Positions 7,439 to 59,957 of a stretch of DNA of 64,000 nt are shown piece by piece. The stretch comes from Escherichia phage vB_EcoM_phAPEC6. The stretch's first letter is position 1. The number at the start of each line of letters is the position of its first letter. The position numbers and the translations under genes were made by a program. The stretch lies in sequence record MK817115.1; one strand, written 5' to 3'. The notes beneath the pieces are model-generated. The model made no database searches, was not told the DNA's origin, and saw only the letters and a program-made list of their open reading frames with translations.

Positions 7439-9757
7439 TTAGATTTTACAACTATCACAATCACCTTCATCCAAATCAGGAAGTGATGGTAATACAAATT
7501 GTCCAGATTCTGGTTTGGCAGCTTCTTTCAGTACTTTTTCAACGTCTACTTCATCTGAACCATCATTTGTATTATGATAATAAAGATTTTTCAAACCAAC
7601 TTTATATGCATACATAAGTTCAGTTAGAAGAGTTGACATTGGCAACTTACCATCAGGGAAGTGTATTGGGTTATAACTAGTATTAACACTGATACTTTGG
7701 TCAATGTATTTTTGTAGAACACCACAGATTTGTAGATAACCAATGTTATCTTTCTGATCCCATAGTAAATCATATTTGTTTTTCAACTTATTGATTTCTG
7801 GAACTACTTGTTTAAGAATACCATCCTTAGATAGTTTCTTCGTTACAAGAGAACGTGGCTTTTCAATACCGTTAGTACTGTTACTGATTTGTGCACTTGT
7901 TTCTGCTGGCATTAATGCCATTGTTGTTGCGTTACGAATACCATATTCTTTGATATCGGCACGTAAGGATTCCCAATCTTGTTTTAGTTCTTTAGTTACT
8001 AATTCATCAATGTCCGATTTATAAGTATCGATTGGAAGGATACCTTTGGCATATTTTAGATTATCAAATCCTTCACACTTACCTTTCTCTTTAGCAAGCT
8101 GTACAGAAGATTTAATTAGATAGTAAGACCATGCTTCAGCCCACTCGTTAACTGTTTCTAGTGCTGCTTCATTATAACGTAAACCACGTTTAGCAAGGAA
8201 GTATGCAAAGTTAATAATACCAACACCTAGTGGACGATACATTTTTGTTGCTCGGTCAGCATGAACTACTGGGTAGTCTTGATAGTCCAATAGTGAATCA
8301 AGAGCACGAACAGAAAGATCACATGCAGTTTCCATATCTTCTGGTTTATCAAAGTTACCCCAGTTAATTGCACTCAAAGTACATAGGCTAATCAAACCTT
8401 CACCAGTATTAATATCATCAAATGGCACAGATGGTAGTGCGATTTCTTGACACAAGTTGGATTGTTCGATTGGTGCAATTGATTCAACAAATGTTGAGTG
8501 AGTGTTTGCATGGTCAATATTTTGAATATAGATACGACCAGTTTCTGCACGTTCAGTCATTAGAGTACTGAATACTTCCACAGCAGGAACGGATTTTTTA
8601 CGGATGCTTTGGTCAGCTTCGTATTTTTTATATAGTTTTTCAAATTCTTTTTGGTCAGAACAGAATGCTTCATATAGCCCAGGGACTTCATTAGGACTAA
8701 AGAATGTAATATTCTTTCCATCAACCAAACGTTGATATAAAGTTTTGTTTACTTGGAAACAATAGTCTAGTTGACGTACACGGTTAAACTCTGTACCTTT
8801 GTTATTTTTAAGTACAACTAGGTTATCAAATTCCAAATGCCACAATGGAAAGTGAACAGTTGCTGCACCACCACGCACACCACCCTGTGAGCAGCTTTTA
8901 ACGGTCTTAGCAGTTGCTGCGATAAAAGGAATCAACCCAGTATGTACTGCATCACCTGAACGAATCTCAGAGTCTAGAGCACGAATGCGGCCCATATTAA
9001 TACCTAGTCCAGCTTTGCGTGAGATATAACGTAGAATAGCGTGATTTGATGAACCAATGCTATCTAAACTATCACCAACGTTCAGTACTACACAAGAACT
9101 AAACTGACGTGTATTAGTACGTAGACCTGCCATAATAGGTGTTGGAAGACTGATGTCAAAATTACTTACTGCGTCATAAAACTTTTTAACATATGACATA
9201 CGTACAGAACGATCATACTCCATAAAGATGATTGCTGCAATAGTCATATATGCCATTTGTGGGGTTTCATAAATTTTCTTAGTGACTCGGTTTTTATAAA
9301 GATACTTTCCTTCCCACTGACGCATAGCAACATAAGTAAATTTGTCGTCACGCTTATGTTTGATATAACGCCCAAGCTCTTCTATTTCTTGAAGAGTATA
9401 TTTCTCCAAAATTTCAGGATCATATATTTTAGTATCTACCATTTCTTGAAGATGAGCAGTATACTTAATTGGGTCATACTGTCCATATACTTGCTTACGA
9501 ATACTATAGTTTAATAATCTTCCAGCAACGTATTGATAGTTAGGCGTATCTTCAGAAATAAGTTCTGCTGCTGCTTTTATTAGAATATCATGAATAGTAC
9601 TAGTTTCAATACCTTCATAAAACTGAAGTTGTGCTCGGATTTCAATTTCAGAAACTGAAATACCACTTAAACCTTCAGCAGCGAAAAATAAAATTTGATG
9701 GATCTTATCCAATGATAACGGCTCTTTCATTCCATTACGCTTGGTTACGTTAATCAT
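7439..9757 (-). CDS. nrdA: Ribonucleotide reductase large subunit (class Ia)
   Basis: 772 aa; ATP-cone N-terminus, catalytic core and C-terminal CDSCKI cysteine tail. Confidence 0.9.
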   Translation of the reverse strand: MINVTKRNGMKEPLSLDKIHQILFFAAEGLSGISVSEIEIRAQLQFYEGIETSTIHDILIKAAAELISEDTPNYQYVAGRLLNYSIRKQVYGQYDPIKYTAHLQEMVDTKIYDPEILEKYTLQEIEELGRYIKHKRDDKFTYVAMRQWEGKYLYKNRVTKKIYETPQMAYMTIAAIIFMEYDRSVRMSYVKKFYDAVSNFDISLPTPIMAGLRTNTRQFSSCVVLNVGDSLDSIGSSNHAILRYISRKAGLGINMGRIRALDSEIRSGDAVHTGLIPFIAATAKTVKSCSQGGVRGGAATVHFPLWHLEFDNLVVLKNNKGTEFNRVRQLDYCFQVNKTLYQRLVDGKNITFFSPNEVPGLYEAFCSDQKEFEKLYKKYEADQSIRKKSVPAVEVFSTLMTERAETGRIYIQNIDHANTHSTFVESIAPIEQSNLCQEIALPSVPFDDINTGEGLISLCTLSAINWGNFDKPEDMETACDLSVRALDSLLDYQDYPVVHADRATKMYRPLGVGIINFAYFLAKRGLRYNEAALETVNEWAEAWSYYLIKSSVQLAKEKGKCEGFDNLKYAKGILPIDTYKSDIDELVTKELKQDWESLRADIKEYGIRNATTMALMPAETSAQISNSTNGIEKPRSLVTKKLSKDGILKQVVPEINKLKNKYDLLWDQKDNIGYLQICGVLQKYIDQSISVNTSYNPIHFPDGKLPMSTLLTELMYAYKVGLKNLYYHNTNDGSDEVDVEKVLKEAAKPESGQFVLPSLPDLDEGDCDSCKI

Positions 9758-36224: not shown

Positions 36225-36956
36225 TTAGCAGCCTGTTACGTAAAATTTGTATACTGCAATTCCAGTATCTAGTGTTACATTTAGCATACCAGTTTTAGTA
36301 ATACCAAGTGATACTGATTCGGCATTAGATACGCGAGATAATGCTTGAAGTACGCGATCAATATTATAACCAAAACCAAGACCTAATTCACCTTCAGTTT
36401 TAGAAAAAGCTAGAGAACCAACGTGGTTACTTTTGTTTTTCTCACCAACGTGAAAGTATAGGGTGTCGCCTTCAGTATACGGAGTTACAAGAGAACTAAA
36501 AGATTTAAATACACCAGAAAAACTCTTTAGTTCCTGAACTTTTGCTGCACTAGGAATAACCTGTACGTCATATGGTTGTTCATGAAAACGTGGTTGAACT
36601 GGAATAAGTTTTTCAGCTTGTACCATAAATGTAGTGCTTGCATCTTCAGATTTAAATGCCAGACTTTTAACTGAACCATCTTTAACATTTGATGTGATTG
36701 TGGTTCCTTCGGTACTGTATGTTTTTAGAGACATTAGACCCTGAAGAAGACCTAGATTACCTAAGCCAAAACGACCCTGAACTTCAGGAACATCTTCTTT
36801 AGTATATGCTCGCATTACAAGAGTTCGGTCATCTGTGTACGCTTCTAGATATACACGTTGTCCTTCACCACGGTCTTCACTGCTTACTGCAATACAAGAG
36901 AAGTCAATACCACTGGTTGTGTTTACGAGGTCACGTAGTACGTTGCGTAGATCCAT
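36225..36956 (-). CDS. Sliding-clamp-like protein (possible gp45 equivalent)
   Basis: 243 aa; N-terminal LVNTTSGIDF and GNLGLLQGLMSL resemble T4 gp45 as recalled; has its own early-type promoter. Confidence 0.4.
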   Translation of the reverse strand: MDLRNVLRDLVNTTSGIDFSCIAVSSEDRGEGQRVYLEAYTDDRTLVMRAYTKEDVPEVQGRFGLGNLGLLQGLMSLKTYSTEGTTITSNVKDGSVKSLAFKSEDASTTFMVQAEKLIPVQPRFHEQPYDVQVIPSAAKVQELKSFSGVFKSFSSLVTPYTEGDTLYFHVGEKNKSNHVGSLAFSKTEGELGLGFGYNIDRVLQALSRVSNAESVSLGITKTGMLNVTLDTGIAVYKFYVTGC

Positions 36957-37507: not shown

Positions 37508-40500
37508 TTACCAAGTGAAGAATCCATTGTTTACTGACGCAGTACTTTTTTCATGAATACCAATATCCATATCCAAAATACCAAAAATATTCTCTAATTT
37601 TTTAGTTAGAACAATCTCTTCCATTTTTTCAGTATCAAATGGTAGTTCCAAGAACCATTCTGGAAGATACTCAACACAGTCAATTGGATAACCAACAGCT
37701 TTAATTCCCATAGGATTATCTTTTAAGTTACAGACAATTACTTTTGTTCCATCCGTTACTTCTGGTACAGATTTATCATCATAAACTTCACGTAGACGGT
37801 TCCATTGGATACCAGCAAGAACGTGACCAACTTTACACTTACCAGTTAGCTGATATTCAGCCTCTAAATTAGTGTAGTTTTTTACAGTTTTTGGTGAACC
37901 TTTTTCATGTACAGGCATATCCTTAAATACGTCCTTAAACTCACGTACACGCTGTTTTAGCTGTTGTTCACTCTCACCTACCAGTAATGCGATTAGAGTC
38001 TCTTCTAGGAAGTTCTGGATGTATTTTGGCGTGTCTGAGCGTTTAATTTCAAGACCCATCGCTTTGATTTCACCTGGTTTACCATCAATATCTTTACGGA
38101 ACCCATCTTCCCAGTACTTCAGAATTGCATAACGTTTTTTCTTCAAGAATAGGCCACGCGAACCAACCATCTCAAGGTCTGCACCAACAATCTTACCTTT
38201 TTCAATACCAGTGTTGAACATCTCATGCATAAATGATGGGAAAGATTCACCAACTTCTTCACCAATTTTAATATACATATCAACAATCTCTTCTTTAGAT
38301 AGATTATATGGAATACCTTGTTCTTTCAGATAATGAGTTACACTAAAGTAAACTGAGTCAGTATCACCATAAATTACTGAACCACCTTGGTGGTTATATA
38401 CACCAGTAGTAATTTCATTGATACGACTTGCCATATGTTTGGTCATAGAACGTCCAGTTAATGTTACGGATTGACCTAAACGTTTGTCAAAAAAACGAGA
38501 ACCTTTGTTCAATAGTGCACCATATAGACTGTTTAGAAGAATCTTACGAATCTGTTGGTTCTGTTTCCAGAAAGCACTACGTTGTTTGAAGTAATCTTTT
38601 TCTTCTTTAGGACAGAAAATACGACCATCTTTTAGTACTAATCCGTTTTCTACAATCAACTTAGCAACTTCATCCCACTGTCCTTTACCAATTTCTTTAC
38701 GAAGTAAGTATACAGGATCATTATCATGAATATTAGTTCTAAACATTGTACCAGGGGTATAGTTTGATAGTAGTGGTTCAACTTTTTCATAGCCATTAAA
38801 CTCCCAACCATCAGTATACATATGTTTGTAGTCAATGACCATTTTTTGCTGTGCTTTACGTTCAGAATACCATTGAGTTAGAATGTCAGGAATTACACCA
38901 GACTTAGACTTATCAAAAAGTGTTCCGTTTGCACTAAGTACAATAGTACTATCTTCTGCAAAAATAATATCATATAGCTCTTTGCCCGTTGCTTTAAAAG
39001 AACTCCCATCTTCTAAATCAACAATCAATGTTTCTTCTGACTTTTCATGAACCATTGTAAATTCAACAGCAGCAAATAAACCATGCCATGCCGCAGTCCA
39101 ATCTGGTTCAAATGATTTAGATTTAGATTTGTTCTTCTGTTCTTGGATTTTAGCTGCAAGATACGCATCGGTGTAATCTTGACGTAATTGACCAAGAATA
39201 CATTCAGTACTCATACCCAAAGTACGTAGAACAGTAGGGTAAAGAGAGTTAAAGTCAGTACACCCAAGGTCACTTACAAGTCCTAGTACTGGATCTTGTA
39301 CCCATGCACCTGCTGCTTTTGCACTAATTTTCTCATCTTCATCTTCACCATCTTCACCATAATATTCCATTTCTGGATCAAACTCAAGATCATCTTTCGG
39401 TGCTTTGTTGAAAACAACTTCACCACGAGTATGTGCTAAGTTGATAATAGCAGTGTCGATTAGTGCTACTGAACCCATTGTTGTACTGATAAGTACACAT
39501 TCTTTGTGTGCAAGTCGATTGTGTAGGTTGATATAGTCACATTTAGCATCAATCTTTTTAAGAAGAATACTATCCTGTTTAGAATAACGCAAGAAAGTAA
39601 TGTAATCCTCTCTGTAAAGTTTATCCAATGAACCTTCATAGGATACTTTATTTTCTTTAGTTACTTTTTCAGCAATATAATCTAGTTTATAAGATTGTTC
39701 AACTTGACCAGCATGTTTCTTATACAAAGCCAAATAATCAAGATGGACGCGACCTACCAGATCATATGTTTGAACAGTTTTACCAAAGTTGTCTGCTTCA
39801 CGTGAATTTGGTTTTTTATTCCATAAACACCAACGAGCAGTTGTTGCTTCATTGAAGATTTTTTTAGTTCGATTGATCATATATGGAATATCAAAGAATT
39901 CACTATTCCATCCTGAAATAACATCAGAATCATCAATTAAACTAAAGAATTCCATAAACATTTCCTTTTCGTCTGTATATAAAATTACAGTACTGTTAGG
40001 ATCGTTTGTTTCTTCATTTAGTTGGCGAACAATATCTTGTGCTTCATAAATTTCCATATCAGCAGGTGGTAAAGTAAGTACATAATCCTTTCCAGTCCAT
40101 GATTGATATAGAGAAATAGCGGTTACTCGGTTAAACGGGTCTGATGGTGGAGCATAACCAAATTTCTTATGGAAATCAGTCTCGATATCGAAGAACACGA
40201 TGTTCAAATCGGGTGAACCTTTTCCCATATATTCTTTAGCTAATGTTTTAAATGTAATGTTACAGTCACTTTCAAAAATACGTAGACCTTCACTTTTGTG
40301 TTGCTCTACACTTTTATTCATTTGAGCTTGAGTTTGAAACTCAAAATGTTTAGCCATTGTACCATAAACAGTTTTATGTGTTCCTTGTGGGGATTCAACA
40401 TAATATTCATATACTGGATCTAATTCGCGTAGAATACGTTTACCATTCTTACGTTCAACTACATGAAGAATATCACCAGTACGTTTACGTTCCATATAAG

Positions 40501-40513
40501 CATCGATATACAT
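37508..40513 (-). CDS. 43: Family B DNA polymerase (T4 gp43 equivalent)
   Basis: 1001 aa; polymerase motif C YGDTDS; N-terminal exonuclease region. Confidence 0.9.
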   Translation of the reverse strand: MYIDAYMERKRTGDILHVVERKNGKRILRELDPVYEYYVESPQGTHKTVYGTMAKHFEFQTQAQMNKSVEQHKSEGLRIFESDCNITFKTLAKEYMGKGSPDLNIVFFDIETDFHKKFGYAPPSDPFNRVTAISLYQSWTGKDYVLTLPPADMEIYEAQDIVRQLNEETNDPNSTVILYTDEKEMFMEFFSLIDDSDVISGWNSEFFDIPYMINRTKKIFNEATTARWCLWNKKPNSREADNFGKTVQTYDLVGRVHLDYLALYKKHAGQVEQSYKLDYIAEKVTKENKVSYEGSLDKLYREDYITFLRYSKQDSILLKKIDAKCDYINLHNRLAHKECVLISTTMGSVALIDTAIINLAHTRGEVVFNKAPKDDLEFDPEMEYYGEDGEDEDEKISAKAAGAWVQDPVLGLVSDLGCTDFNSLYPTVLRTLGMSTECILGQLRQDYTDAYLAAKIQEQKNKSKSKSFEPDWTAAWHGLFAAVEFTMVHEKSEETLIVDLEDGSSFKATGKELYDIIFAEDSTIVLSANGTLFDKSKSGVIPDILTQWYSERKAQQKMVIDYKHMYTDGWEFNGYEKVEPLLSNYTPGTMFRTNIHDNDPVYLLRKEIGKGQWDEVAKLIVENGLVLKDGRIFCPKEEKDYFKQRSAFWKQNQQIRKILLNSLYGALLNKGSRFFDKRLGQSVTLTGRSMTKHMASRINEITTGVYNHQGGSVIYGDTDSVYFSVTHYLKEQGIPYNLSKEEIVDMYIKIGEEVGESFPSFMHEMFNTGIEKGKIVGADLEMVGSRGLFLKKKRYAILKYWEDGFRKDIDGKPGEIKAMGLEIKRSDTPKYIQNFLEETLIALLVGESEQQLKQRVREFKDVFKDMPVHEKGSPKTVKNYTNLEAEYQLTGKCKVGHVLAGIQWNRLREVYDDKSVPEVTDGTKVIVCNLKDNPMGIKAVGYPIDCVEYLPEWFLELPFDTEKMEEIVLTKKLENIFGILDMDIGIHEKSTASVNNGFFTW

Positions 40514-40592: not shown

Positions 40593-40922
40593 TTAGTAAT
40601 CATCTGCTTGTGGAAGATTATTAGTAACACTAAGAATAGTTTCGATATTATCGAGTTTATTTTGTTTGTCAAAGTAATCACCTTTGTACATACGTTGTGC
40701 AGCTTGTTTGATATCAGATGCATCGATACCAAGTTCATCAGAAACACTAGAAACAAAATCAGATAAGGATGCTTTGGTATCATCAATGAAAGTTAGTTGT
40801 ACAACAATGTTGTTAAGTGCGTCACCGAGACGTTTACGTTGTTCATCGTTTAGATCACGAATTTCAACTTTAACTTCTTTTTTAGATTTAGCCATTTTGT
40901 ATTTCTCCATGTGTGTTTTCAA
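40593..40922 (-). CDS. Hypothetical protein
   Basis: 109 aa ORF; true start may be the internal Met at 40895. Confidence 0.35.
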   Translation of the reverse strand: MKTHMEKYKMAKSKKEVKVEIRDLNDEQRKRLGDALNNIVVQLTFIDDTKASLSDFVSSVSDELGIDASDIKQAAQRMYKGDYFDKQNKLDNIETILSVTNNLPQADDY

Positions 40923-40984
40923 AAAATGTCACCTCACCACAATCGGTGAGATGACTTAATTGTATCACGTCTTTACGTGTTGTC

Positions 40985-41500
40985 TCATTTTTTTTCCGGT
41001 TTAACTGGAAATGAAAATGTTTTCTTGATCATGTCTGCTGGTTTGATTGAATTCAATTGCGTTACATAATCTTTCAATTTTACAAACAATACAGCTTCTT
41101 CATCAGTTGCTAACTCAAGATCCATAGCAGTTTTTAAGTGTCCAAGTTCTTGAATTGCAATGTATTTCAAATTAGATAATTCATTTTTTAGGCGTTCAAT
41201 TTTTTCTTCTTTAGTTTCAATATAGTCATGAATAGTATTTCCATCGTAAACCATACCATAAAGTTTGTTAATATCACCATCATATTCAATTTCAGAAACA
41301 CTAAAACCTAAAGGTACTAGATCATAAATGTTATATGATGCTGAAACAATTAAACCGTTAATATCATACATAAATTTTGCTTTATTAATGTCAAACAATT
41401 CACGAGATTCATACCAATCCATACCTTCATCGGACATCATATACAAAGAATTAGGATTACCACCTTCTTTTTCATACATCTTAAAATTTGTTAGTTGCAT
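40985..41500 (-). CDS. Tail fibre assembly chaperone (Tfa-like)
   Basis: C-terminus ATDEEAVLFVKLKDYVTQLNSIKPADMIKKTFSFPVKPE typical of Tfa-family chaperones; directly downstream of the tail fibre gene. Confidence 0.5.
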   Translation of the reverse strand: MQLTNFKMYEKEGGNPNSLYMMSDEGMDWYESRELFDINKAKFMYDINGLIVSASYNIYDLVPLGFSVSEIEYDGDINKLYGMVYDGNTIHDYIETKEEKIERLKNELSNLKYIAIQELGHLKTAMDLELATDEEAVLFVKLKDYVTQLNSIKPADMIKKTFSFPVKPEKK

Positions 41501-41510
41501 TACACATTCC

Positions 41511-43121
41511 TTATTGTTGACGTACTGTTTCCCAGTTACCATTTATTTGCATTTGAACATAGCGATAACTAATTCGTTCTAAGTGAGTGCCTGAACTACC
41601 ATTAACAGAAATCCATACGCCATCCATAAATGCACCTTCTGGTGTATATGTCCATGAAGAATCAGGTATTTTACTTGTTTCAATACGTGCACTCAAACGA
41701 ATACTTTGTACGTTATTAGTACTAATTTGCAAAGTAACGTTGCCACTAGCATCAGCAGCAGTACCGTTAATTGAACGAACAATATTTTTACCACCAACAG
41801 TAGCTGAGTTGTTAGAAACAGTTAATGATGGAGCAGCTAAAGTACCAGAAGAGTTTACAGTAACTTCTGCTCCACCGGAACGTAATCTCAATGTATTATT
41901 TGAAGAGTTATGATACACTGCCGCACGCTCACCACCGCTTGCGTTACGGAAATATAGAACTAATGATGTATCATTTGACTTAATTGACGCACTGTTTGCA
42001 ATAGTCAATGAACCAGTCATTGTATCACCAGTTTTTAGTACATAACGAGTGTTTGCAACTTTTTCACTCAATGCGACGTTAGATTCAGCAATGTTATATA
42101 GATATGCAACGTTAAAGTGTTCCACATCAATGTTACTAATACCATGATAGTGTGGTTGGTTTCCACCAAGTGTGTTAGTGTTTCCACTAAATGAGTGAAT
42201 GTGGTCTGGTGCTTCGTTAATGTTATTGATTACAGTTGGTATACCGTTATCATTACTTGAAGTTAACGCATTTAGACCACTACGGTCCATACCTTTTAGT
42301 GCTTGACTATGACCATGACGACCAGCAGCCCCTGTGGTCCCACTAAAACTAAATGAGTGTGATGGTAATTGGGCAACACTTAATACTGTGCCGCTAATAT
42401 TACCGCTACTACCAATAACACTATCAGTTTTAGTTACACCTGATGTGGATATCCCTTTTAAGTACGCGTTTTGGTTAAGGTTTGGTACTTGTTTGGTAAT
42501 TGTACCATTTTCCCCCTCCCATTGCCACCACATACCATCAGCAAAACACCAACCGTCAGACGTTTTCCACGGAGCACCTTGTGAACCGTTTCTCCCACTT
42601 TGTCCATTCGATTGTCCTGACATTTGTTCACGTATACTAGCAACAGATTGACCAGAAGTCAATGAATATTGTGTAATAGCACCTGGTTTAAGTGAAGTGT
42701 AAAGACCAGTTGGACCAGAACCACCACTAGAAGCAGTAGGGAATACAATGTTTAAGTTTGTTCCACTAATACTTGCACTAGGAACAGTACTACTACTGTA
42801 TGTTACACTTTCTACTTTTAAATTTAATTTTCTGTTTACTTCATCTAATGAAATTCTAATTGGTTCCAAAATAGTATCAGTATCGTATACTGCAATCCAA
42901 CTTGTACCGTTATGATACTTCAAAACTAATTCGTTTCGATCAAAAACCATTGCACCTTGTTCACCAGTAGGTAACGTTTGTACTGGTATAATAACTGATG
43001 ACGAATTAAAACGAATAGGTCTTGGGTTAGTTGGTGTACCACCAAGCACTATTAGTTCTAAAGATCCATTAGCACCAGTACTGGTCATTGTATCCAATGG
43101 GTTATTAAAACTTATGCTCAT
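41511..43121 (-). CDS. Tail fibre protein
   Basis: 536 aa; Ser/Gly/Thr/Asn-rich; GDTMTG repeat; three His-x-His motifs (RHGHS, DHIHSF, PHYHGI); AATAAATA late-like box upstream. Confidence 0.6.
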   Translation of the reverse strand: MSISFNNPLDTMTSTGANGSLELIVLGGTPTNPRPIRFNSSSVIIPVQTLPTGEQGAMVFDRNELVLKYHNGTSWIAVYDTDTILEPIRISLDEVNRKLNLKVESVTYSSSTVPSASISGTNLNIVFPTASSGGSGPTGLYTSLKPGAITQYSLTSGQSVASIREQMSGQSNGQSGRNGSQGAPWKTSDGWCFADGMWWQWEGENGTITKQVPNLNQNAYLKGISTSGVTKTDSVIGSSGNISGTVLSVAQLPSHSFSFSGTTGAAGRHGHSQALKGMDRSGLNALTSSNDNGIPTVINNINEAPDHIHSFSGNTNTLGGNQPHYHGISNIDVEHFNVAYLYNIAESNVALSEKVANTRYVLKTGDTMTGSLTIANSASIKSNDTSLVLYFRNASGGERAAVYHNSSNNTLRLRSGGAEVTVNSSGTLAAPSLTVSNNSATVGGKNIVRSINGTAADASGNVTLQISTNNVQSIRLSARIETSKIPDSSWTYTPEGAFMDGVWISVNGSSGTHLERISYRYVQMQINGNWETVRQQ

Positions 43122-43161
43122 GTATAAATCCCTTTATGATTAATATATACTATATTTATTC

Positions 43162-43488
43162 CTATAGCAAGTCGTTATCCATATCATCCCACACAGAATC
43201 AATGATGTTTGCTGCTATCTTTTTAGACATTTTAAACCACTCCGTGTTTGGTTGTCTAGTTGCATTCATTTGTTTAAGCCTTTTATGTATCTCTTTTTCA
43301 GCTAAACGTGCGTCTTCAAAGTGAACTTCATGATAAACTTCAAAATCACGAAACGGGGTAGCTGTCTGATACGTTCTCAAACGCTCTGTCATTTCAGATT
43401 TAGAAGTGAAACCAATCTTAACATAGTCAGGCCATGCAGAGTTTATTATAACATAACATATCTGTGACATAGATTCAATCTCCATCAT
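43162..43488 (-). CDS. T5orf172-domain protein (GIY-YIG superfamily)
   Basis: 108 aa; ICYVIIN ... YVKIGFT ... R ... E ... EWF pattern. Confidence 0.5.
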   Translation of the reverse strand: MMEIESMSQICYVIINSAWPDYVKIGFTSKSEMTERLRTYQTATPFRDFEVYHEVHFEDARLAEKEIHKRLKQMNATRQPNTEWFKMSKKIAANIIDSVWDDMDNDLL

Positions 43489-43883: not shown

Positions 43884-44981
43884 TTACTTAAAGTTATTTA
43901 CAATTTTCAGTACAGATTTTAGATACTTTTCATCAAACGTTTCAGTAAATCCTGACGGCAACTCTTCAGTACTTACTACTCCACTTTCAATGTATTTCTT
44001 TATGAACTTTTCCAACAATAATGGTTGATTGCCATCCTCAAAGTAACGTTCTACCAGTACTTCATGCTCGAACTCAGAATTGCGGCTTTGTTCATTGACA
44101 CGGCGTTTCATATCACCTGTAATTCCATATTTGTACACCGTCTTATCATTATTAGTTAATTTTTGAACATAGAAATATCCAGGTTTTGATGGTTGATATC
44201 CATATTCCCCACATGATGGACATCCTTTACCAGCCATATGTGCTTTTGGTTGTTGGGAGAAGACACCATGAGTCGGACATACAATATCAATATAATTCTC
44301 GCTTAAAGTATATTCAACCAAGCTATAATCATACTTATGGTTATGGATAGGCGACACAAGTTCAATGAAACGTTCAGTGCTTCTTCCACCTTTACCAGAA
44401 CATGTACCGCAGCCAGTTTTACCCTTCAATAAAGTTTGGGCTGAAACAGTCCATTCGTGTTTACCGCGTGTACAGTATACGGTAACTTCCGTCTTATTGT
44501 TAACATATTTGGTATTTGGAAATTCAAACGCATTGCCATAGTTTTCTTTTACTTTTGCGATGAATGATTCAGTACTGTATGCTTCATTTTTATTACATAC
44601 AGGACAGCCCTTACCAGAAAGAAATTTGTTTGGTGTAATTTCAAAGTAATCGTTATGTTCTTCATCAGTGCAGAATAGTGTTACTTTTGATATAGCGTTA
44701 GTGTAATTTAGTTTATCAAATTTGAATTTATCTTTACCAAATTTAGTTTCTACAGTACTGATGAATGTGTCGTTGTTTGAACGCTGTGACATGTTTGAAT
44801 AACATGATGCACATGTACATGCAATGTGACGAAGTGCAGGTTTGGTGTTTTCTTTCCCACACTTGTTACATTTTACTGTTGTTTTACTTGCCTTGAATAC
44901 TAAAGTACTGAAGTCAAATTCTCCATACTTAGCAGTCATTTGGTTGATAAACTCGTCTTTGTTGATACTTACGTTTGGCAT
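43884..44981 (-). CDS. Zinc-ribbon repeat protein with C-terminal GIY-YIG/T5orf172-like domain (putative homing-endonuclease-like)
   Basis: 365 aa; three K-x-G-x-GCPxC modules; C-terminal GYFYV ... YKYGIT ... RR ... E; own promoter. Confidence 0.5.
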   Translation of the reverse strand: MPNVSINKDEFINQMTAKYGEFDFSTLVFKASKTTVKCNKCGKENTKPALRHIACTCASCYSNMSQRSNNDTFISTVETKFGKDKFKFDKLNYTNAISKVTLFCTDEEHNDYFEITPNKFLSGKGCPVCNKNEAYSTESFIAKVKENYGNAFEFPNTKYVNNKTEVTVYCTRGKHEWTVSAQTLLKGKTGCGTCSGKGGRSTERFIELVSPIHNHKYDYSLVEYTLSENYIDIVCPTHGVFSQQPKAHMAGKGCPSCGEYGYQPSKPGYFYVQKLTNNDKTVYKYGITGDMKRRVNEQSRNSEFEHEVLVERYFEDGNQPLLLEKFIKKYIESGVVSTEELPSGFTETFDEKYLKSVLKIVNNFK

Positions 44982-45121: not shown

Positions 45122-46297
45122 TTACATGAAAGTAACGTTTTTGATAGCGATTTTGCTGTAGTAGTCAGCAGCGTTACCAAGAGATGAAGTACTGTCGGTC
45201 AACTGTACATAGCCATATCTGGTTAGAAAAGTTGTAACGAGTTCCCCAGTGTTAGGGTCCATTACAGTACCAGAAGCCATTAGTGGGATGTATGGGCAAT
45301 AGAATACACCAGCATCAGTTTCCGCATTACCTTTATAACCAATTAGAATATCTTCTGCATCACTAGCATAGGTATCAACGAAAATACGCATAGTGCTGTT
45401 TAGAGTACCTACAAACTTAACGTTAGTTGGTGCTTCGAAAGTACCTTCAGTGGTACGTGCAAAGCTAGAAGTAGTAGCAGATTGTAGAATGGTTAGTGCA
45501 GTTGGGGAAACAACAGCCCAGTTTGCAGCACCACGCTTAGTACGACGAGCAACTTCGTTTGCTTGACGGTTAATTAGAGTTGCTAGAGCAGCGTGCTCAT
45601 CACCAACGAAGGTTGCAACACCAGTAACTTTAGATTGGTCATAAGTTACAGCAGCAGCACCAGGTAGTGCACGTAGACGGCTTAGTAGCTCTTGGTCGAT
45701 TTCTACAGTAACTTCTTGAGCGATTGCAGCCATTAGTTCTGCTTCAACGTCAACACCATGTTGGGATTGAGCATCTTGTGCAGATTCAACAGTCCAACGT
45801 GCAGATAGACGACGAGATTTCGCTTCAACAGTTTCACGTAGAATACGGATGTTAACGCGACGACCCATAGTACCTTCTAGTTGGCTAGTAGGAGCAGCTT
45901 GTGGGTTGCTATTATCCGCATTTAGATCACCAGAGTAAGATTTAGCGATTTTGTATGGAGAAAGCATTTCTTCACCAGCGATTACACCAGGTGCGTTATC
46001 AGCATATTGTACACGTAGGGTGTGGATCTGACCAACTGGACCAGTCATAGGTTGAACACCGATGATTTCGTTAGCAATAACGGTTGGCATTACACGACGC
46101 ATAATTGGTAGAATCACTTTGTTTAGAGTAGCGATGTTACCAGCGGTAGTTGCACCAGAAGTTGCGGATTCAGTTAGCATAACTTTACGATGGTTATCAA
46201 GAACAGTTTCCATTACAGACTTACGAGTACCCTGTAGACCTTCAACTAGTTTCTCTTTTACTGCTACCCATTTGGATTCATTTAGTAGTTGTGACAT
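45122..46297 (-). CDS. 23: Major capsid protein (T4 gp23 family)
   Basis: 391 aa; MRRVMPTVIANEIIGVQPM, VEAKSRRLSARWTVESAQD and IGYKGNAETDAGVFYCPY align with T4 gp23 as recalled; exact TATAAATA late box upstream. Confidence 0.8.
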   Translation of the reverse strand: MSQLLNESKWVAVKEKLVEGLQGTRKSVMETVLDNHRKVMLTESATSGATTAGNIATLNKVILPIMRRVMPTVIANEIIGVQPMTGPVGQIHTLRVQYADNAPGVIAGEEMLSPYKIAKSYSGDLNADNSNPQAAPTSQLEGTMGRRVNIRILRETVEAKSRRLSARWTVESAQDAQSQHGVDVEAELMAAIAQEVTVEIDQELLSRLRALPGAAAVTYDQSKVTGVATFVGDEHAALATLINRQANEVARRTKRGAANWAVVSPTALTILQSATTSSFARTTEGTFEAPTNVKFVGTLNSTMRIFVDTYASDAEDILIGYKGNAETDAGVFYCPYIPLMASGTVMDPNTGELVTTFLTRYGYVQLTDSTSSLGNAADYYSKIAIKNVTFM

Positions 46298-46342: not shown

Positions 46343-46350
46343 TATTTATA
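46343..46350 (-). promoter_or_regulatory. Late promoter box TATAAATA
   Basis: Exact T4 late consensus on the minus strand, about 45 nt upstream of the capsid gene ATG. Confidence 0.6.
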
Positions 46351-47551: not shown

Positions 47552-47559
47552 TATTTATA
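47552..47559 (-). promoter_or_regulatory. Late promoter box TATAAATA
   Basis: Exact match on the minus strand upstream of the scaffold gene; overlaps one arm of an 11 bp inverted repeat. Confidence 0.55.
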
Positions 47560-53421: not shown

Positions 53422-53509
53422 AACATTCCCTTTTAATAGATGTATTATAGAAATATTTATGAAACTATAGAGAATATAAAAATTAGTTTAATTTAATCTT
53501 TTTTAGTCT

Positions 53510-53517
53510 TATAAATA
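53510..53517 (+). promoter_or_regulatory. Late promoter box TATAAATA
   Basis: Exact match about 35 nt upstream of the ATG at 53552. Confidence 0.55.
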
Positions 53518-53551: not shown

Positions 53552-54388
53552 ATGGCTATGAATCCACTTGCTAAGTACACTAAAATTGAAGAGATCAGTA
53601 CTAAGTTAGTTACAAACGGCGTTATTCCTTATAAAGAAGGAGTTCTAGGTCCAAAAGGTGTCAAATGTGGAGTTTGTGCACGTAGTGCACGTGATGAAAT
53701 GACACTTAATACCCCCGATATGTTACTAAACGGAGATGCAGTATCCCGTGTTATTGAAAACTGTGTTCCTAATGTAATTGACGCTGATGAGTTGTATGTA
53801 AATGACGTTGAAATGCTTCTTATTGCTATTAAAGTTGCTTCTAAAGAAGAAACATATGATATTAACGTTGTATGTCCTGAATGTGAAAAAGAAGGTCGAT
53901 TTGAACGTAATCTATCATATCTTCTTGAAACTGCACAAGCATTTGAAGAAATCCCATCAATTGATTTAGATAATGGACTACGTTTAGAATTTAGACCACT
54001 GACATGGAAAGAATATTCATCGTTTGCTGAACGCATGTTCAGTGAGCAGCAGAAGACTAAGTTTCTTGAAACTGCTGATATTGATAAAGATGAAAAAGTA
54101 AAAATATTTTCTGAAGTATTTGAAAACATGGCTCAACTTAACTTCGATATGATTGGTGGAGTTATTGCAAAAATTATAACACCAGATGGTGATGAAGTAG
54201 TTGAAAAAGAATTTATTAATGAATGGCTTGGACAACAATCGAAGGGAGTACTTAAACTAATTCGTGAAAAAATGGATGAAGTACTTGAAATTGGTGTATC
54301 TCATAGTATGGAAGTAGAATGTGATGGATGTAATCATCAATGGGAAATTGATGGACTAAAATATGATCCTAGTCATTTTTTCGAGTAA
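53552..54388 (+). CDS. Hypothetical late protein with three Cys pairs
   Basis: 278 aa; CGVCARSA, CPECEKEG and CDGCNHQ; exact TATAAATA at 53510-53517. Confidence 0.45.
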   Translation: MAMNPLAKYTKIEEISTKLVTNGVIPYKEGVLGPKGVKCGVCARSARDEMTLNTPDMLLNGDAVSRVIENCVPNVIDADELYVNDVEMLLIAIKVASKEETYDINVVCPECEKEGRFERNLSYLLETAQAFEEIPSIDLDNGLRLEFRPLTWKEYSSFAERMFSEQQKTKFLETADIDKDEKVKIFSEVFENMAQLNFDMIGGVIAKIITPDGDEVVEKEFINEWLGQQSKGVLKLIREKMDEVLEIGVSHSMEVECDGCNHQWEIDGLKYDPSHFFE

Positions 54389-58099: not shown

Positions 58100-59149
58100 T
58101 TATAACGATCTGTAAATTTGGATTAGAAGATTTTTATCAAACATGGGTGAGTCAATTTCCATAATTTGCTGCAACACAATCTCATCAACTGATTCAGTAC
58201 TTTCAAAACTAACACCATCTTCAATTAATTCTGCGATACTTTGCTTGCTCGTTACAACATTAAACTCTCTAATGTTGTAAAGTTTAGTAAATGTATCACG
58301 AATAAAACTAATCTCATCTGTTGTTATTGATATATCAACTTGAACTTTTGATATTGTATTATCTTGAAGATAATAACCAGGATCAGTTAACAATTCTGAA
58401 AGTGTAAATGTTCTATATTTTGGTGCATGTTCCCATGATTTGAAAATAGGTTCTTTACCATGTTCAAGGATCATTACACCTCTTGCATCATCCCATGTAT
58501 CGGAAAAATTATGTGGAAAACAATTACCAGTATAAACTACACGAGTTCCTTTTGAAGTTGTTTTTGACTGCCTTTTATGAAAATGTCCACTAAAAACATA
58601 CTCACAACCACCAAAAGAACCTTCTGTTTCTTTTCCATGATCAGGCATTTCTACCATCTTGTTAAGCAAGTAACCTGGTAACTCTAAGTGACCAAAAACA
58701 TACTTACTTTTTAGTTGAGGTAACAACTTATATTCATCTTCAATCATAAATGGAATGAAAGTACAATCATCAAATGTTGTAATTTCATTAATGAATTCTA
58801 TATTTTCATAAACTTGAGCCATATTGATACTTGTTATATCACGTTTGTTTTTATGATACATATCATGGTTGCCTACTAAAAAATATACTTTTTCAAAATT
58901 ATCATTTAATAATTGAAGAATTTGTAAACCATAGTTTAGTGTTTGGATATTGATATTACTTCTATTATGAAAATAATCTCCCATAAAAACACAAACTTTG
59001 ATATTATTTTTTTTAGCTACCTCAATCATGAATTTAATGAAGTTTAAACAATCTTCATTGTGTTGCTTGCTGTTATTCTTTAAACCTAAATGAATATCAG
59101 TGAATGTAATTGCTTTATCAAACAGAGCCATCTTCATTTTTCCTTTCAA
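58100..59149 (-). CDS. 47: Mre11/SbcD-like recombination nuclease subunit (T4 gp47 equivalent)
   Basis: 349 aa; phosphoesterase motifs TDIHLG, GDYFH and GNHD; true start may be the Met at 59131. Confidence 0.8.
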   Translation of the reverse strand: MKGKMKMALFDKAITFTDIHLGLKNNSKQHNEDCLNFIKFMIEVAKKNNIKVCVFMGDYFHNRSNINIQTLNYGLQILQLLNDNFEKVYFLVGNHDMYHKNKRDITSINMAQVYENIEFINEITTFDDCTFIPFMIEDEYKLLPQLKSKYVFGHLELPGYLLNKMVEMPDHGKETEGSFGGCEYVFSGHFHKRQSKTTSKGTRVVYTGNCFPHNFSDTWDDARGVMILEHGKEPIFKSWEHAPKYRTFTLSELLTDPGYYLQDNTISKVQVDISITTDEISFIRDTFTKLYNIREFNVVTSKQSIAELIEDGVSFESTESVDEIVLQQIMEIDSPMFDKNLLIQIYRSL

Positions 59150-59957
59150 TCATGTTCAATTCAATTTCAATTTGACGTGTATGTGATGGCGTAAAGCCAT
59201 GCATTTCAAGTAAATCATCACGTATATTTCGAACATTTTTCTCACTATTCAATATAGAACGAAAACTATTGTTTACGAATGATGTATAGTAAGAGAAAGG
59301 ATTTAGCTGAACTGCTGGTTTATCTTTTTTATAAAGAATGCTCTCTTTAAAGAGAAGTGCGTTTTTAACTAATTGTATTCTTGCATCACCCATCATTTCA
59401 TCTAAGTATGTATAGTTTCTGTAATTAGATTTGTGTGAGATTTCCTCTGCAAGTTTAATGAACATCTTCCCAAGTTCATTTGTAATTTTACCATGAACAG
59501 TACTGAATTCACCAGTTTCAAGGTCGCCTTTCCAGTGAGAACGACAAACTTCATAGAGAATACCTTCATTATCTACAATATAATGCTTGAATGGTTCAAA
59601 GTTAACTCTAGTATCTGGTGGAATATGTTCATCTGTAATAACACGAATAACAACTTCATCAATTGGAACGTCAGTGATAACTAAATTGTGTTCATCTGCA
59701 TATTCTTTAGCTTTTTTAGCACTCATATTTTCCTTTTCACGAATACTATCAAGCATTTCATTGTTCAGTCGTTTAATTCGTGCTGCCTTAGCTTTTTCTA
59801 GTAACTCAGCAGTAATTTCTGACTCATGAAAAACAATATAATCATACATACTATATGATTTGTCTAATAACCAGCAATATGAAATTTTACTTTTTTGTAT
59901 TTCACGAAGTAAATCAGCATTATTGAGATACTTTTTACGCTTTGGTCTATTTGTCAT
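59118..59957 (-). CDS. 55: Late-transcription sigma factor (T4 gp55 equivalent), extended
   Basis: 279 aa; KRKKYLNNADLLREI resembles the gp55 N-terminus as recalled; sits next to the gp47/gp46 genes; own early-type promoter. Confidence 0.5.
   Translation of the reverse strand: MTNRPKRKKYLNNADLLREIQKSKISYCWLLDKSYSMYDYIVFHESEITAELLEKAKAARIKRLNNEMLDSIREKENMSAKKAKEYADEHNLVITDVPIDEVVIRVITDEHIPPDTRVNFEPFKHYIVDNEGILYEVCRSHWKGDLETGEFSTVHGKITNELGKMFIKLAEEISHKSNYRNYTYLDEMMGDARIQLVKNALLFKESILYKKDKPAVQLNPFSYYTSFVNNSFRSILNSEKNVRNIRDDLLEMHGFTPSHTRQIEIELNMIERKNEDGSV

Follow-up and report, generated by a model that had tools for sequence, protein, structure and literature searches.

The two genes described here lie on the minus strand of a 64,000-nt stretch of Escherichia phage vB_EcoM_phAPEC6 DNA (MK817115.1; hereafter, the window), and they very likely make up one unit, expressed late, for a trimeric tail fibre, orthologous to RaK2 gp098, and a trans-acting Tfa chaperone, with the unit standing at an ancestral site and only the fibre tip and the matching chaperone being exchangeable. 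They are an ordinary, already annotated pair of a 121Q/PBECO4-type jumbo coliphage. The window was 100% identical to phage SP27 (Asteriusvirus), with about 99% identity to 121Q and PBECO4, in which RefSeq names the two genes "tail fiber protein" and "tail fiber assembly protein". SP27 and phAPEC6 have been reported as one species (PMC7247149). Since RefSeq had already annotated the pair in 121Q and PBECO4, and experiments had been published on the RaK2 orthologue, the discovery value is small, and the main gains are corrections and context, i.e., the start of the chaperone gene, the ancestral location, and the limits of the exchangeable part. No specific data on this fibre gene were found in published work on Sharanji, JP4, and fEgEco12.

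A sequence-only reading of the window had proposed a fibre protein of 536 aa with a GDTMTG string and three HxH motifs, and this ORF was confirmed at 41511..43121 on the minus strand. The gene is the orthologue of RaK2 gp098, K64-1 S2-8, and CBB gp260. In PHROG profile searches, the protein matched phrog_13229 'tail fiber protein' along residues 1-536, with an E value of 1.1e-273. When it was used as the tblastn query, homologues covering about 82-99% of its length, with about 48-58% identity, were found in all the RaK2-like genera, and a query 99.8% identical to RaK2 gp098 matched the Asteriusvirus fibres with 48.9% identity over 85% of its length. We retrieved 120 fibre homologues, and 77 orthologues were used for the conservation, profile, and Pfam comparisons. 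Both orthology and synteny held with RaK2 ORF098, CBB gp260, GAP32_254, Yersinia phage g253, and an Erwinia phage fibre. The Pfam search with the window fibre matched no family, and sequence searches of the PDB, with either the single sequence or the 77-sequence profile, returned nothing relevant. The fold search with the predicted model gave as top matches two structures of the Mu tail fibre gpS, 5yvq_A (probability 0.96) and 8ju3 (probability 0.99), yet sequence similarity to gpS was not detectable.

The conserved N-terminal region comprises residues 1-245 (42387..43121, minus strand) and is presumed to be the baseplate-attachment part; these approximately 245 residues most likely anchor the fibre to the baseplate, and the structure search found no recognisable relative of this domain. 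Strings resembling GWCxxDG, PNLNxxxYLKG, and LPxH had raised the suspicion of a diverged phage tail-collar domain at residues 145-260, an idea that was dropped when none of the 77 orthologues gave Pfam support at E values up to 1 and the fold searches gave none either. The anchor would be followed by a central histidine-motif segment, a beta-structured shaft, and a receptor-binding tip made of the last 73 or so residues. The histidine-motif region, with its three HxH motifs, corresponds to residues 246-330 (42132..42386, minus strand), where the AF2 model was of low confidence (residues 272-304 had pLDDT values under 50). The distal shaft, residues 331-463 (41733..42131, minus strand), contains GDTMTG (residues 365-370, window positions 42012-42029) and the junction motif NIVRSINGTAADASGNVT; it was kept in all the fibre orthologues, and pLDDT values of 79-89 were obtained for residues 371-450. 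Sequence conservation among the orthologues stopped at the junction motif, and beyond it lies the variable, predicted receptor-binding tip of 73 aa, residues 464-536 (41514..41732, minus strand), which is diverged or replaced in relatives.

The three HxH motifs are H269/H271 (RHGHS), H307/H309 (DHIHS), and H324/H326 (PHYHG), and at least three such motifs appeared in 12 of 20,000 shuffles of the protein. The last pair, H324/H326, was invariant among the 77 orthologues. The sequence-only reading had likened these motifs, which may coordinate metal, to the fibre tips of the T4 gp37 type. The repeated HxH was indeed there; the distal position and a match to gp37 in sequence or fold were not, and the likeness to the gp37 metal-binding tip appears to be confined to the motifs. 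On these grounds, it is improbable that this protein serves as distal subunit in a T4 gp37-like long tail fibre with the HxH motifs forming a metal-binding receptor needle, even if the motifs are non-random, the Pfam family YmaF, an HxH-repeat family, gave weak matches in 19 of the 77 orthologues (best E 0.0036), a T4 gp34 fragment appeared among the weak fold matches, and the orthologue of Yersinia phage fHe-Yen9-04 is labelled 'Long tail fiber protein p37' in LT960551. The HxH segment is located mid-protein, at residues 269-326 of 536, and is followed by another 210 residues that include the conserved shaft and the variable tip. Neither the gp37 needle nor any other fibre in the PDB was matched by sequence, with the single protein or with the 77-sequence profile, and the fold search gave no gp37 match. 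Moreover, gp34-36-like partner genes are absent beside the fibre gene, and the length of 536 aa is near that of T4 gp12 (527 aa). The RaK2 orthologue, in addition, does not belong to the long fibres (PMC10253068).

The second gene had been expected to encode a Tfa-like chaperone downstream of the fibre, and profile searches above threshold bore this out. Its score for Pfam Caudo_TAP (PF02413) was 36.3 bits (E 7.4e-9), where the cut-off is 22.1. The protein also matched phrog_136 'tail fiber assembly protein' over profile positions 3-178 of 178 (E 4.9e-37) and, with residues 29-161 of the 185-aa ORF, TfaMu/gpU (5yvq_B), the Mu protein of known structure and demonstrated chaperone activity (E 3.9e-8). 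By these matches, it is a member of the Mu U / P2 G / lambda Tfa family. The family assignment therefore stood, but the length of 185 aa first given for the protein did not. The 185-aa ORF (40985..41542, minus strand) overlapped the fibre gene by 32 nt, its ATG had no preceding Shine-Dalgarno sequence, and the phrog_136 match began at residue 15. In contrast, a Shine-Dalgarno AAGGA was located at 41508..41512 on the minus strand, overlapping the fibre stop codon and separated by 7 nt from an ATG at 41500. For these reasons, the gene was assigned to 40985..41500 on the minus strand, encoding a tail fibre assembly protein of 171 aa, and the reading frame from 41542 is, on this evidence, an over-extension. 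The 171-aa (516-nt) form is the one annotated in 121Q and G17. A 10-nt spacer separates the fibre stop codon from the chaperone ATG on the same strand, and the chaperone gene was also found directly 3' of the fibre gene in 121Q, vB_Ec-M-J, EC.P1, SE_PL, GAP32, CBB, and 4MG.

The comparison of the fibre C-terminus across relatives, which the earlier reading had put forward as a check, revealed a conserved body and a tip that was either variable or replaced. With respect to vB_Ec-M-J and EC.P1, the fibre body was 88% identical and the small protein encoded downstream 93%, whereas identity fell to 53% in the tip and 50% in Tfa. The fibres of Turkey5 and RaK2/RCIP0023 carry a Gp53-like_C tip and the chaperone gene is absent, and the Eneladusvirus fibres have a Peptidase_S74 C-terminus followed by an unrelated ORF of 188 aa. 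Tip families were clustered after trimming the conserved junction motif, as all the tips merged when it was left in place, and the window's tip family was present in at least 74 of 121 orthologues. These alignments show that only the last 73 or so residues and the matching chaperone are exchanged or fast-diverging. The most likely role of Tfa is to bind the tip at the C-terminus of the fibre and to drive its trimerisation and folding, for which the joint divergence of the two gives indirect support; Tfa may also be retained on the virion.

The Mu gpS/gpU system (5YVQ, 8JU3) is a close known parallel for this arrangement, since the chaperone is homologous to gpU and directly follows the fibre gene, as U follows S. 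Unlike gpS, the window fibre has a 460-aa body specific to the RaK2-like jumbo phages. In Mu, the locus includes an invertible segment with alternative S'/U' genes; no sign of such a segment was observed, and the pair was found once per related record. A homologous tip-plus-Tfa pair is present in Seunavirus 4MG (Vequintavirinae). The end of its fibre, 4MG_044, is homologous to the last 118 or so residues of the window fibre (421-535; 37% identity, E 3e-18), a stretch that takes in both the NIVRxxNG..AD..GNVT junction and the tip, and its Tfa, 4MG_043, is a 171-aa protein encoded directly after the fibre that falls in the same PHROG (23% identity, E 7e-7). However, 4MG_044 has 370 aa and an unrelated N-terminal body, and its gene lies inside a baseplate/fibre gene cluster.

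The pair had been described as sitting directly after the DNA polymerase gene, and this is correct in plus-strand coordinates; in the direction of transcription, the major capsid protein (MCP) gene (45122..46297) comes first, then the pair, and then the polymerase gene (37508..40513). The gene order is portal, protease, scaffold, MCP, small genes, fibre, optional chaperone, 100-aa protein, and DNA polymerase. The fibre pair ends a same-strand block of structural genes and is no island amid replication genes. This order was shared by 121Q and G17 (Asteriusvirus), GAP32 and CBB (Mimasvirus), fHe-Yen9-04 and pEa_SNUABM_47 (Eneladusvirus), and RaK2 and RCIP0023 (Alcyoneusvirus), with the succession of MCP, T5orf172 gene, fibre, 100-aa protein, and DNA polymerase kept in all four genera. 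The same order in four genera indicates that the fibre location is ancestral to the whole RaK2-like clade. We therefore found no support for the proposal that this is a transposed host-range cassette, and it is most improbable that the fibre-chaperone pair moved from a tail module to the polymerase-adjacent site. Genes of the nuclease type do lie upstream (T5orf172 at 43162..43470 and a 365-aa endonuclease at 43884..44981), the latter being sporadic among relatives, and the tip and Tfa vary as a module, all of which would fit a mobile cassette. Synteny contradicts it, as the same site between MCP and DNA polymerase is occupied in four genera, with fibre bodies that share only about 50-57% identity. 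Furthermore, the N-terminal 460 residues of the fibre were conserved to the same degree as the neighbouring genes, the adjoining T5orf172 gene is a conserved core gene with 68-69% identity across genera, the GC content was unremarkable (0.34-0.36 vs 0.30-0.39 elsewhere in the window), and the window's tip family is the commonest among the orthologues. What survives of the cassette idea is an exchangeable module, and this comprises the distal tip of about 73 aa and the chaperone, not the gene pair as a transposed whole.

The fibre-Tfa pair looks like a late transcription unit, with an ATAAATA motif at its head and a strong terminator at its end. This late-promoter-like motif (43153..43159, minus strand) was found between the T5orf172 gene, whose stop codon lies 3 nt before it, and the fibre gene, whose ATG follows 32 nt downstream. 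Within the window, 18 of the 22 occurrences of ATAAATA were intergenic, with non-coding sequence amounting to only about 7.6%, and the motif was placed at similar distances before the genes for MCP, scaffold, protease, a 734-aa structural protein, and the baseplate hub. ATAAATA is also the late promoter proposed for the related phages CBB and GAP32 (PMC5259590), and it is a candidate promoter here. The exact T4 late promoter, TATAAATA, showed no enrichment in the window (8 found vs 10.4 expected). Past the chaperone gene, an intrinsic terminator was predicted at 40928..40955 on the minus strand, with a 12-bp stem that includes 6 G-C pairs, followed by ATTTTTTG, and the G17 record has a terminator annotated at the same site.

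As for function, the fibre is probably short and baseplate-associated, and by analogy with RaK2 gp098 it would act as a secondary receptor binder needed for irreversible adsorption. RaK2 gp098 has been characterised as a secondary receptor-binding protein of the baseplate (Int J Mol Sci 2023, PMC10253068): it is a virion protein, anti-gp098 serum lowered the plating efficiency, and immunogold labelling placed it at the baseplate, mainly of contracted particles, and not as a part of the long fibres. Like the window fibre, RaK2 gp098 (phiK64-1 S2-8) is encoded between the MCP and DNA polymerase genes, and the two proteins share the last HxH, the GDxMTG motif, and the shaft. On the other hand, the RaK2 protein has 595 aa, with a Gp53-like_C end (PF21882) and extra shaft repeats, and there are two HxH motifs in the aligned region, as against three in the window fibre. 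It has no downstream chaperone gene, whereas the window fibre, whose 73-aa tip belongs to another family, has a separate Tfa gene and a predicted dependence on it. Since RaK2 gp098 has a different tip and lacks a Tfa, we infer the function of the Asteriusvirus fibre from it rather than equate the two. The analogy also suggests that the fibre is probably not the primary determinant of host range.

The T4 short tail fibre gp12 is a functional analogue only, and membership in its family is not claimed. The presumed role is alike, with the fibre sitting on the baseplate and acting in the second, irreversible step of binding, a role that the RaK2 authors proposed for gp098; the sizes are similar (536 vs 527 aa), and HxH is present in both proteins. 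T4 gp12 binds zinc through its HxH motif, and it requires gp57A rather than a Tfa-family protein. The PDB search gave no sequence match between gp12 and the fibre, and gp12 structures were absent from the fold matches.

Direct virion data are available for relatives and for phAPEC6 itself. Eleven peptides of CBB_260 were detected in virions by mass spectrometry (PMC5259590). Electron microscopy showed six short baseplate fibres in both CBB and phAPEC6, with a length, given for CBB only, of about 29 nm. The virion mass spectrometry of phAPEC6 listed 62 proteins, and the list is empty between gp215 and gp225 (PMC7247149); the fibre and the chaperone gp220 consequently went undetected in the virion. 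This result, obtained when 62 proteins, including three other fibre proteins, were found, could mean that the Asteriusvirus fibre is not a significant virion component, being instead a poorly expressed accessory or one used on certain hosts only. Stable fibre trimers, however, may be under-represented in tryptic mass spectrometry. A further observation in favour of a minor role is that a phage with Salmonella as its deposited host has a fibre and a Tfa 100% identical to these. With identical proteins in both, the window fibre alone does not separate the recorded E. coli and Salmonella hosts, which argues that it is not the primary specificity determinant between them. Nevertheless, we consider a minor or accessory role unlikely, given that four genera have kept the gene, that it comes with both a late-promoter-like motif and a terminator of its own, and that the orthologues in CBB and RaK2 are virion proteins. 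Moreover, it differed from G17 at 18 nucleotides and from SD-2_S15 at 14, and the differences, 18/18 and 14/14, were synonymous, with 0 amino-acid changes; by this substitution pattern, the fibre gene is shown to be under purifying selection. The preferred reading remains that of a late-expressed fibre, presumably trimeric and borne on the baseplate in Asteriusvirus phages, where it would bind a secondary receptor.

Extended to the family, the chances are slightly in favour of the gp098-type fibre being the position-fixed secondary-receptor fibre of all the RaK2-like jumbo phages, in which evolution would have swapped between three routes of tip maturation on one conserved scaffold of about 460 aa. 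The first would be a separate Tfa of the Mu U type, as in the window; the second, a Gp53-like_C tip with no dedicated chaperone gene; and the third, a Peptidase_S74 domain built into the fibre as an intramolecular chaperone. The junction motif NIVRSINGxxADxxGNVT, also found in Vequintavirinae fibres, may have served as the recombination point. If this reading holds, the locus would be a ready-made place to test the retargeting of jumbo phages through swaps of the tip and its chaperone. The clearly marked junction and the small exchangeable part are useful for host-range engineering of Asteriusvirus phages.

We found both open reading frames of the sequence-only reading on the minus strand as claimed, one of 536 aa (41511..43121) and one of 185 aa (40985..41542). 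The latter overlapped the fibre gene by 32 nt, its ATG lacked an upstream ribosome-binding site, and its family matches started only at residue 15; the ATG at 41500 follows an AAGGA by 7 nt, and related records annotate a 171-aa form. The chaperone gene was therefore placed at 40985..41500 (-; 171 aa). Its product matched Pfam Caudo_TAP (36.3 bits, above the curated cut-off of 22.1), nearly the whole phrog_136 profile (E 4.9e-37) and 5yvq_B, the solved Mu chaperone gpU/TfaMu (E 3.9e-8), and the Tfa-family similarity on which the chaperone claim had been staked was thus found; judged by sequence, it is a member of this family. Along its entire length the 536-aa protein matched phrog_13229, "tail fiber protein" (E 1.1e-273), and two further fibre PHROGs matched its last ~120 residues. 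The Pfam search returned no family, and nothing in the PDB matched by sequence, whether the query was the fibre itself or a 77-sequence profile. The distal fibre half may be Mu S-like, which fits the Mu U-like chaperone. Over the 3.1 kb around the pair, identity was 100% with Escherichia phage SP27 and ~99% with 121Q, PBECO4 and about twenty more Asteriusvirus jumbo phages; in RefSeq, 121Q and PBECO4 already carry the names "tail fiber protein" and "tail fiber assembly protein". The sequence-only reading rightly recognised a genuine fibre with its Tfa chaperone; annotations of the pair already exist in close relatives, and an orthologue has been experimentally characterised in RaK2.

A domain map of the fibre was built from 18 and 77 orthologues. 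Residues 1-245 are the most conserved part, with Gly, Pro and Trp invariant at many positions; residues 246-330 form a histidine-motif segment with two sequence variants; residues 331-463 are a conserved shaft with GDxMTG (GDTMTG at residues 365-370, as had been noted), ending in the junction motif NIVRSINGxxADxxGNVT; and residues 464-536 are the variable tip. Exactly three HxH motifs were detected (H269/H271, H307/H309 and H324/H326), the last being the sole invariant one. When the protein was shuffled 20000 times, three or more occurred in only 12 cases, indicating that they are not due to chance. They had been likened to the metal-coordinating motifs of the T4 gp37 tip, but they sit mid-protein, and sequence and fold searches gave no link between this tip and the fibre. 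The likeness to gp37 is thus one of motifs only, which may bind metal; the structure model had low confidence across this segment.

The location beside the DNA polymerase gene had been read as a transposed host-range cassette, and this is contradicted by conserved synteny in four genera. The same succession of portal, protease, scaffold, major capsid protein, small genes (a T5orf172 gene among them), fibre, a chaperone in some, a ~100-aa protein and DNA polymerase is found in Asteriusvirus (121Q, G17), Mimasvirus (GAP32, CBB), Eneladusvirus (fHe-Yen9-04, pEa_SNUABM_47) and Alcyoneusvirus (RCIP0023, RaK2). Fibre bodies there share only ~54-57% identity with that of the window, which makes this an old position. 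The pair closes a structural block encoded on the same strand, and the window intermixes structural, replication and transcription genes, among them those for the baseplate hub (53552..54388), SbcCD and a gp55-like sigma factor (59118..59957, -); a separate tail module is therefore the wrong expectation for this phage group.

Several neighbours were also characterised. The gene that immediately precedes the fibre gene in the direction of transcription, T5orf172 (GIY-YIG-like; 43162-43470, -), is 68-69% identical among Asteriusvirus, Mimasvirus and Eneladusvirus, whereas the fibre body is less conserved (54-57%); T5orf172 thus appears to be a core gene passed on vertically rather than a sporadic homing endonuclease. 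Between the capsid gene and the fibre lies a 365-aa endonuclease gene (43884-44981, -; phrog_681) whose product has zinc-finger-like repeats and ends in a T5orf172 part. It ranges over ~300-408 aa in relatives and is missing from GAP32, CBB and the Eneladusviruses, a pattern to be expected of a mobile homing-endonuclease gene. Ahead of it, right after the capsid gene terminator (45078-45059, -), a promoter-like perfect sigma-70 consensus (TTGACA, 17 nt, TATAAT) was found at 45042-45014 (-). The ~100-aa protein (40593-40895, -; phrog_12534, weak match to phrog_639 'transcriptional regulator') has its own terminator (40570-40551); all genera keep it between fibre unit and polymerase gene, with 51-93% identity to that of the window. 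Downstream of the polymerase gene, a 243-aa protein (36225-36956, -) conserved in all genera examined matched only phrog_12062, of unknown function; a sliding-clamp-like factor would be compatible with its size and location. The CBB authors report finding no gp45 homologue (PMC5259590).

Variation is concentrated at the fibre end. In vB_Ec-M-J / EC.P1, fibre residues 1-440 and the downstream small protein are 88% and 93% identical to those of the window, whereas the tip and Tfa are only 53% and 50% identical. Turkey5 (body 83.5% identical), RaK2 and RCIP0023 have a Gp53-like_C tip (PF21882) and no chaperone gene, and Eneladusvirus fibres end in a Peptidase_S74 intramolecular-chaperone domain followed by an unrelated 188-aa ORF; a phrog_136 Tfa is retained in GAP32, CBB and SE_PL. 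At least 74 of 121 orthologues carry a tip of the window's broad family (16 have Gp53-like_C), so the arrangement here is the common one. The fibre of Seunavirus 4MG has an unrelated body, yet its C-terminal end is homologous (37% identity over ~118 residues including junction motif and tip) and a homologous Tfa (23%) follows it; thus, the exchangeable module is the tip with its chaperone, not the gene pair. The 188-aa ORF occupies the Tfa slot in the Yersinia (7635-8201 of stretch L004) and Erwinia (7677-8243 of L006) phages; it matches the C-terminal end of the 673-position phrog_26008, of unknown function, and might serve as another adhesin or as part of the tip.

Both position and sequence mark RaK2 ORF098 as the orthologue; a near-copy of its product (99.8% identity), used as query, shared 48.9% identity with Asteriusvirus fibres over 85% of the query length. 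RaK2 gp098 is a virion protein that is not part of the long fibres; immunogold placed it at the baseplate, mainly on contracted-tail particles, and antiserum against its C-terminal part reduced plating efficiency (PMC10253068). Its authors, for whom AlphaFold failed on the N-terminal part, proposed a secondary receptor-binding role, comparing it with T4 gp12 (PMC10253068). The CBB orthologue gp260 gave 11 peptides in virion mass spectrometry, and micrographs showed six short baseplate fibres of ~29 nm (PMC5259590), as also seen, six in number, in phAPEC6, which reportedly belongs to one species with SP27 (PMC7247149). The phAPEC6 virion proteome has no entries between gp215 and gp225, which counts against a virion role, and the assembly protein gp220 was stated to be undetected (PMC7247149). 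The fibre is thus undetected in phAPEC6 virions, whereas its CBB and RaK2 orthologues are virion proteins; a low copy number, a trimer that resists protease or a genuine lack of the protein could account for this.

The fibre ATG is preceded, at 32 nt, by an ATAAATA, and with similar spacing the motif precedes the genes for capsid, scaffold, protease and baseplate hub. Eighteen of its 22 occurrences in the window are intergenic, and the motif is concentrated in intergenic regions 12-65 nt upstream of structural genes (e.g., 46343-46349, 47552-47558, 53454-53460 (-) and 53511-53517 (+)). The pattern is consistent with a T4-like late promoter that the gp55-like sigma factor would recognise, and ATAAATA has been proposed as the late promoter of CBB and GAP32 (PMC5259590). 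A terminator with a 12-bp stem follows the Tfa gene. In the proposed mechanism, the fibre-Tfa unit would be transcribed late; Tfa would bind the C-terminal tips of three fibre chains and drive trimer folding, and the trimer would be anchored at the baseplate by its conserved N-terminal part. Once other fibres have made the primary contact, this one may engage a second receptor, leading to irreversible adsorption. The fibre gene differs from those of G17 and Salmonella phage SD-2_S15 by 18 and 14 nucleotides, respectively, with no amino-acid change, indicating purifying selection. As fibre and Tfa of SD-2_S15 (recorded host Salmonella Typhimurium) are 100% identical to those of the window, the fibre alone does not separate those recorded hosts, and this identity fits a putative conserved secondary receptor.
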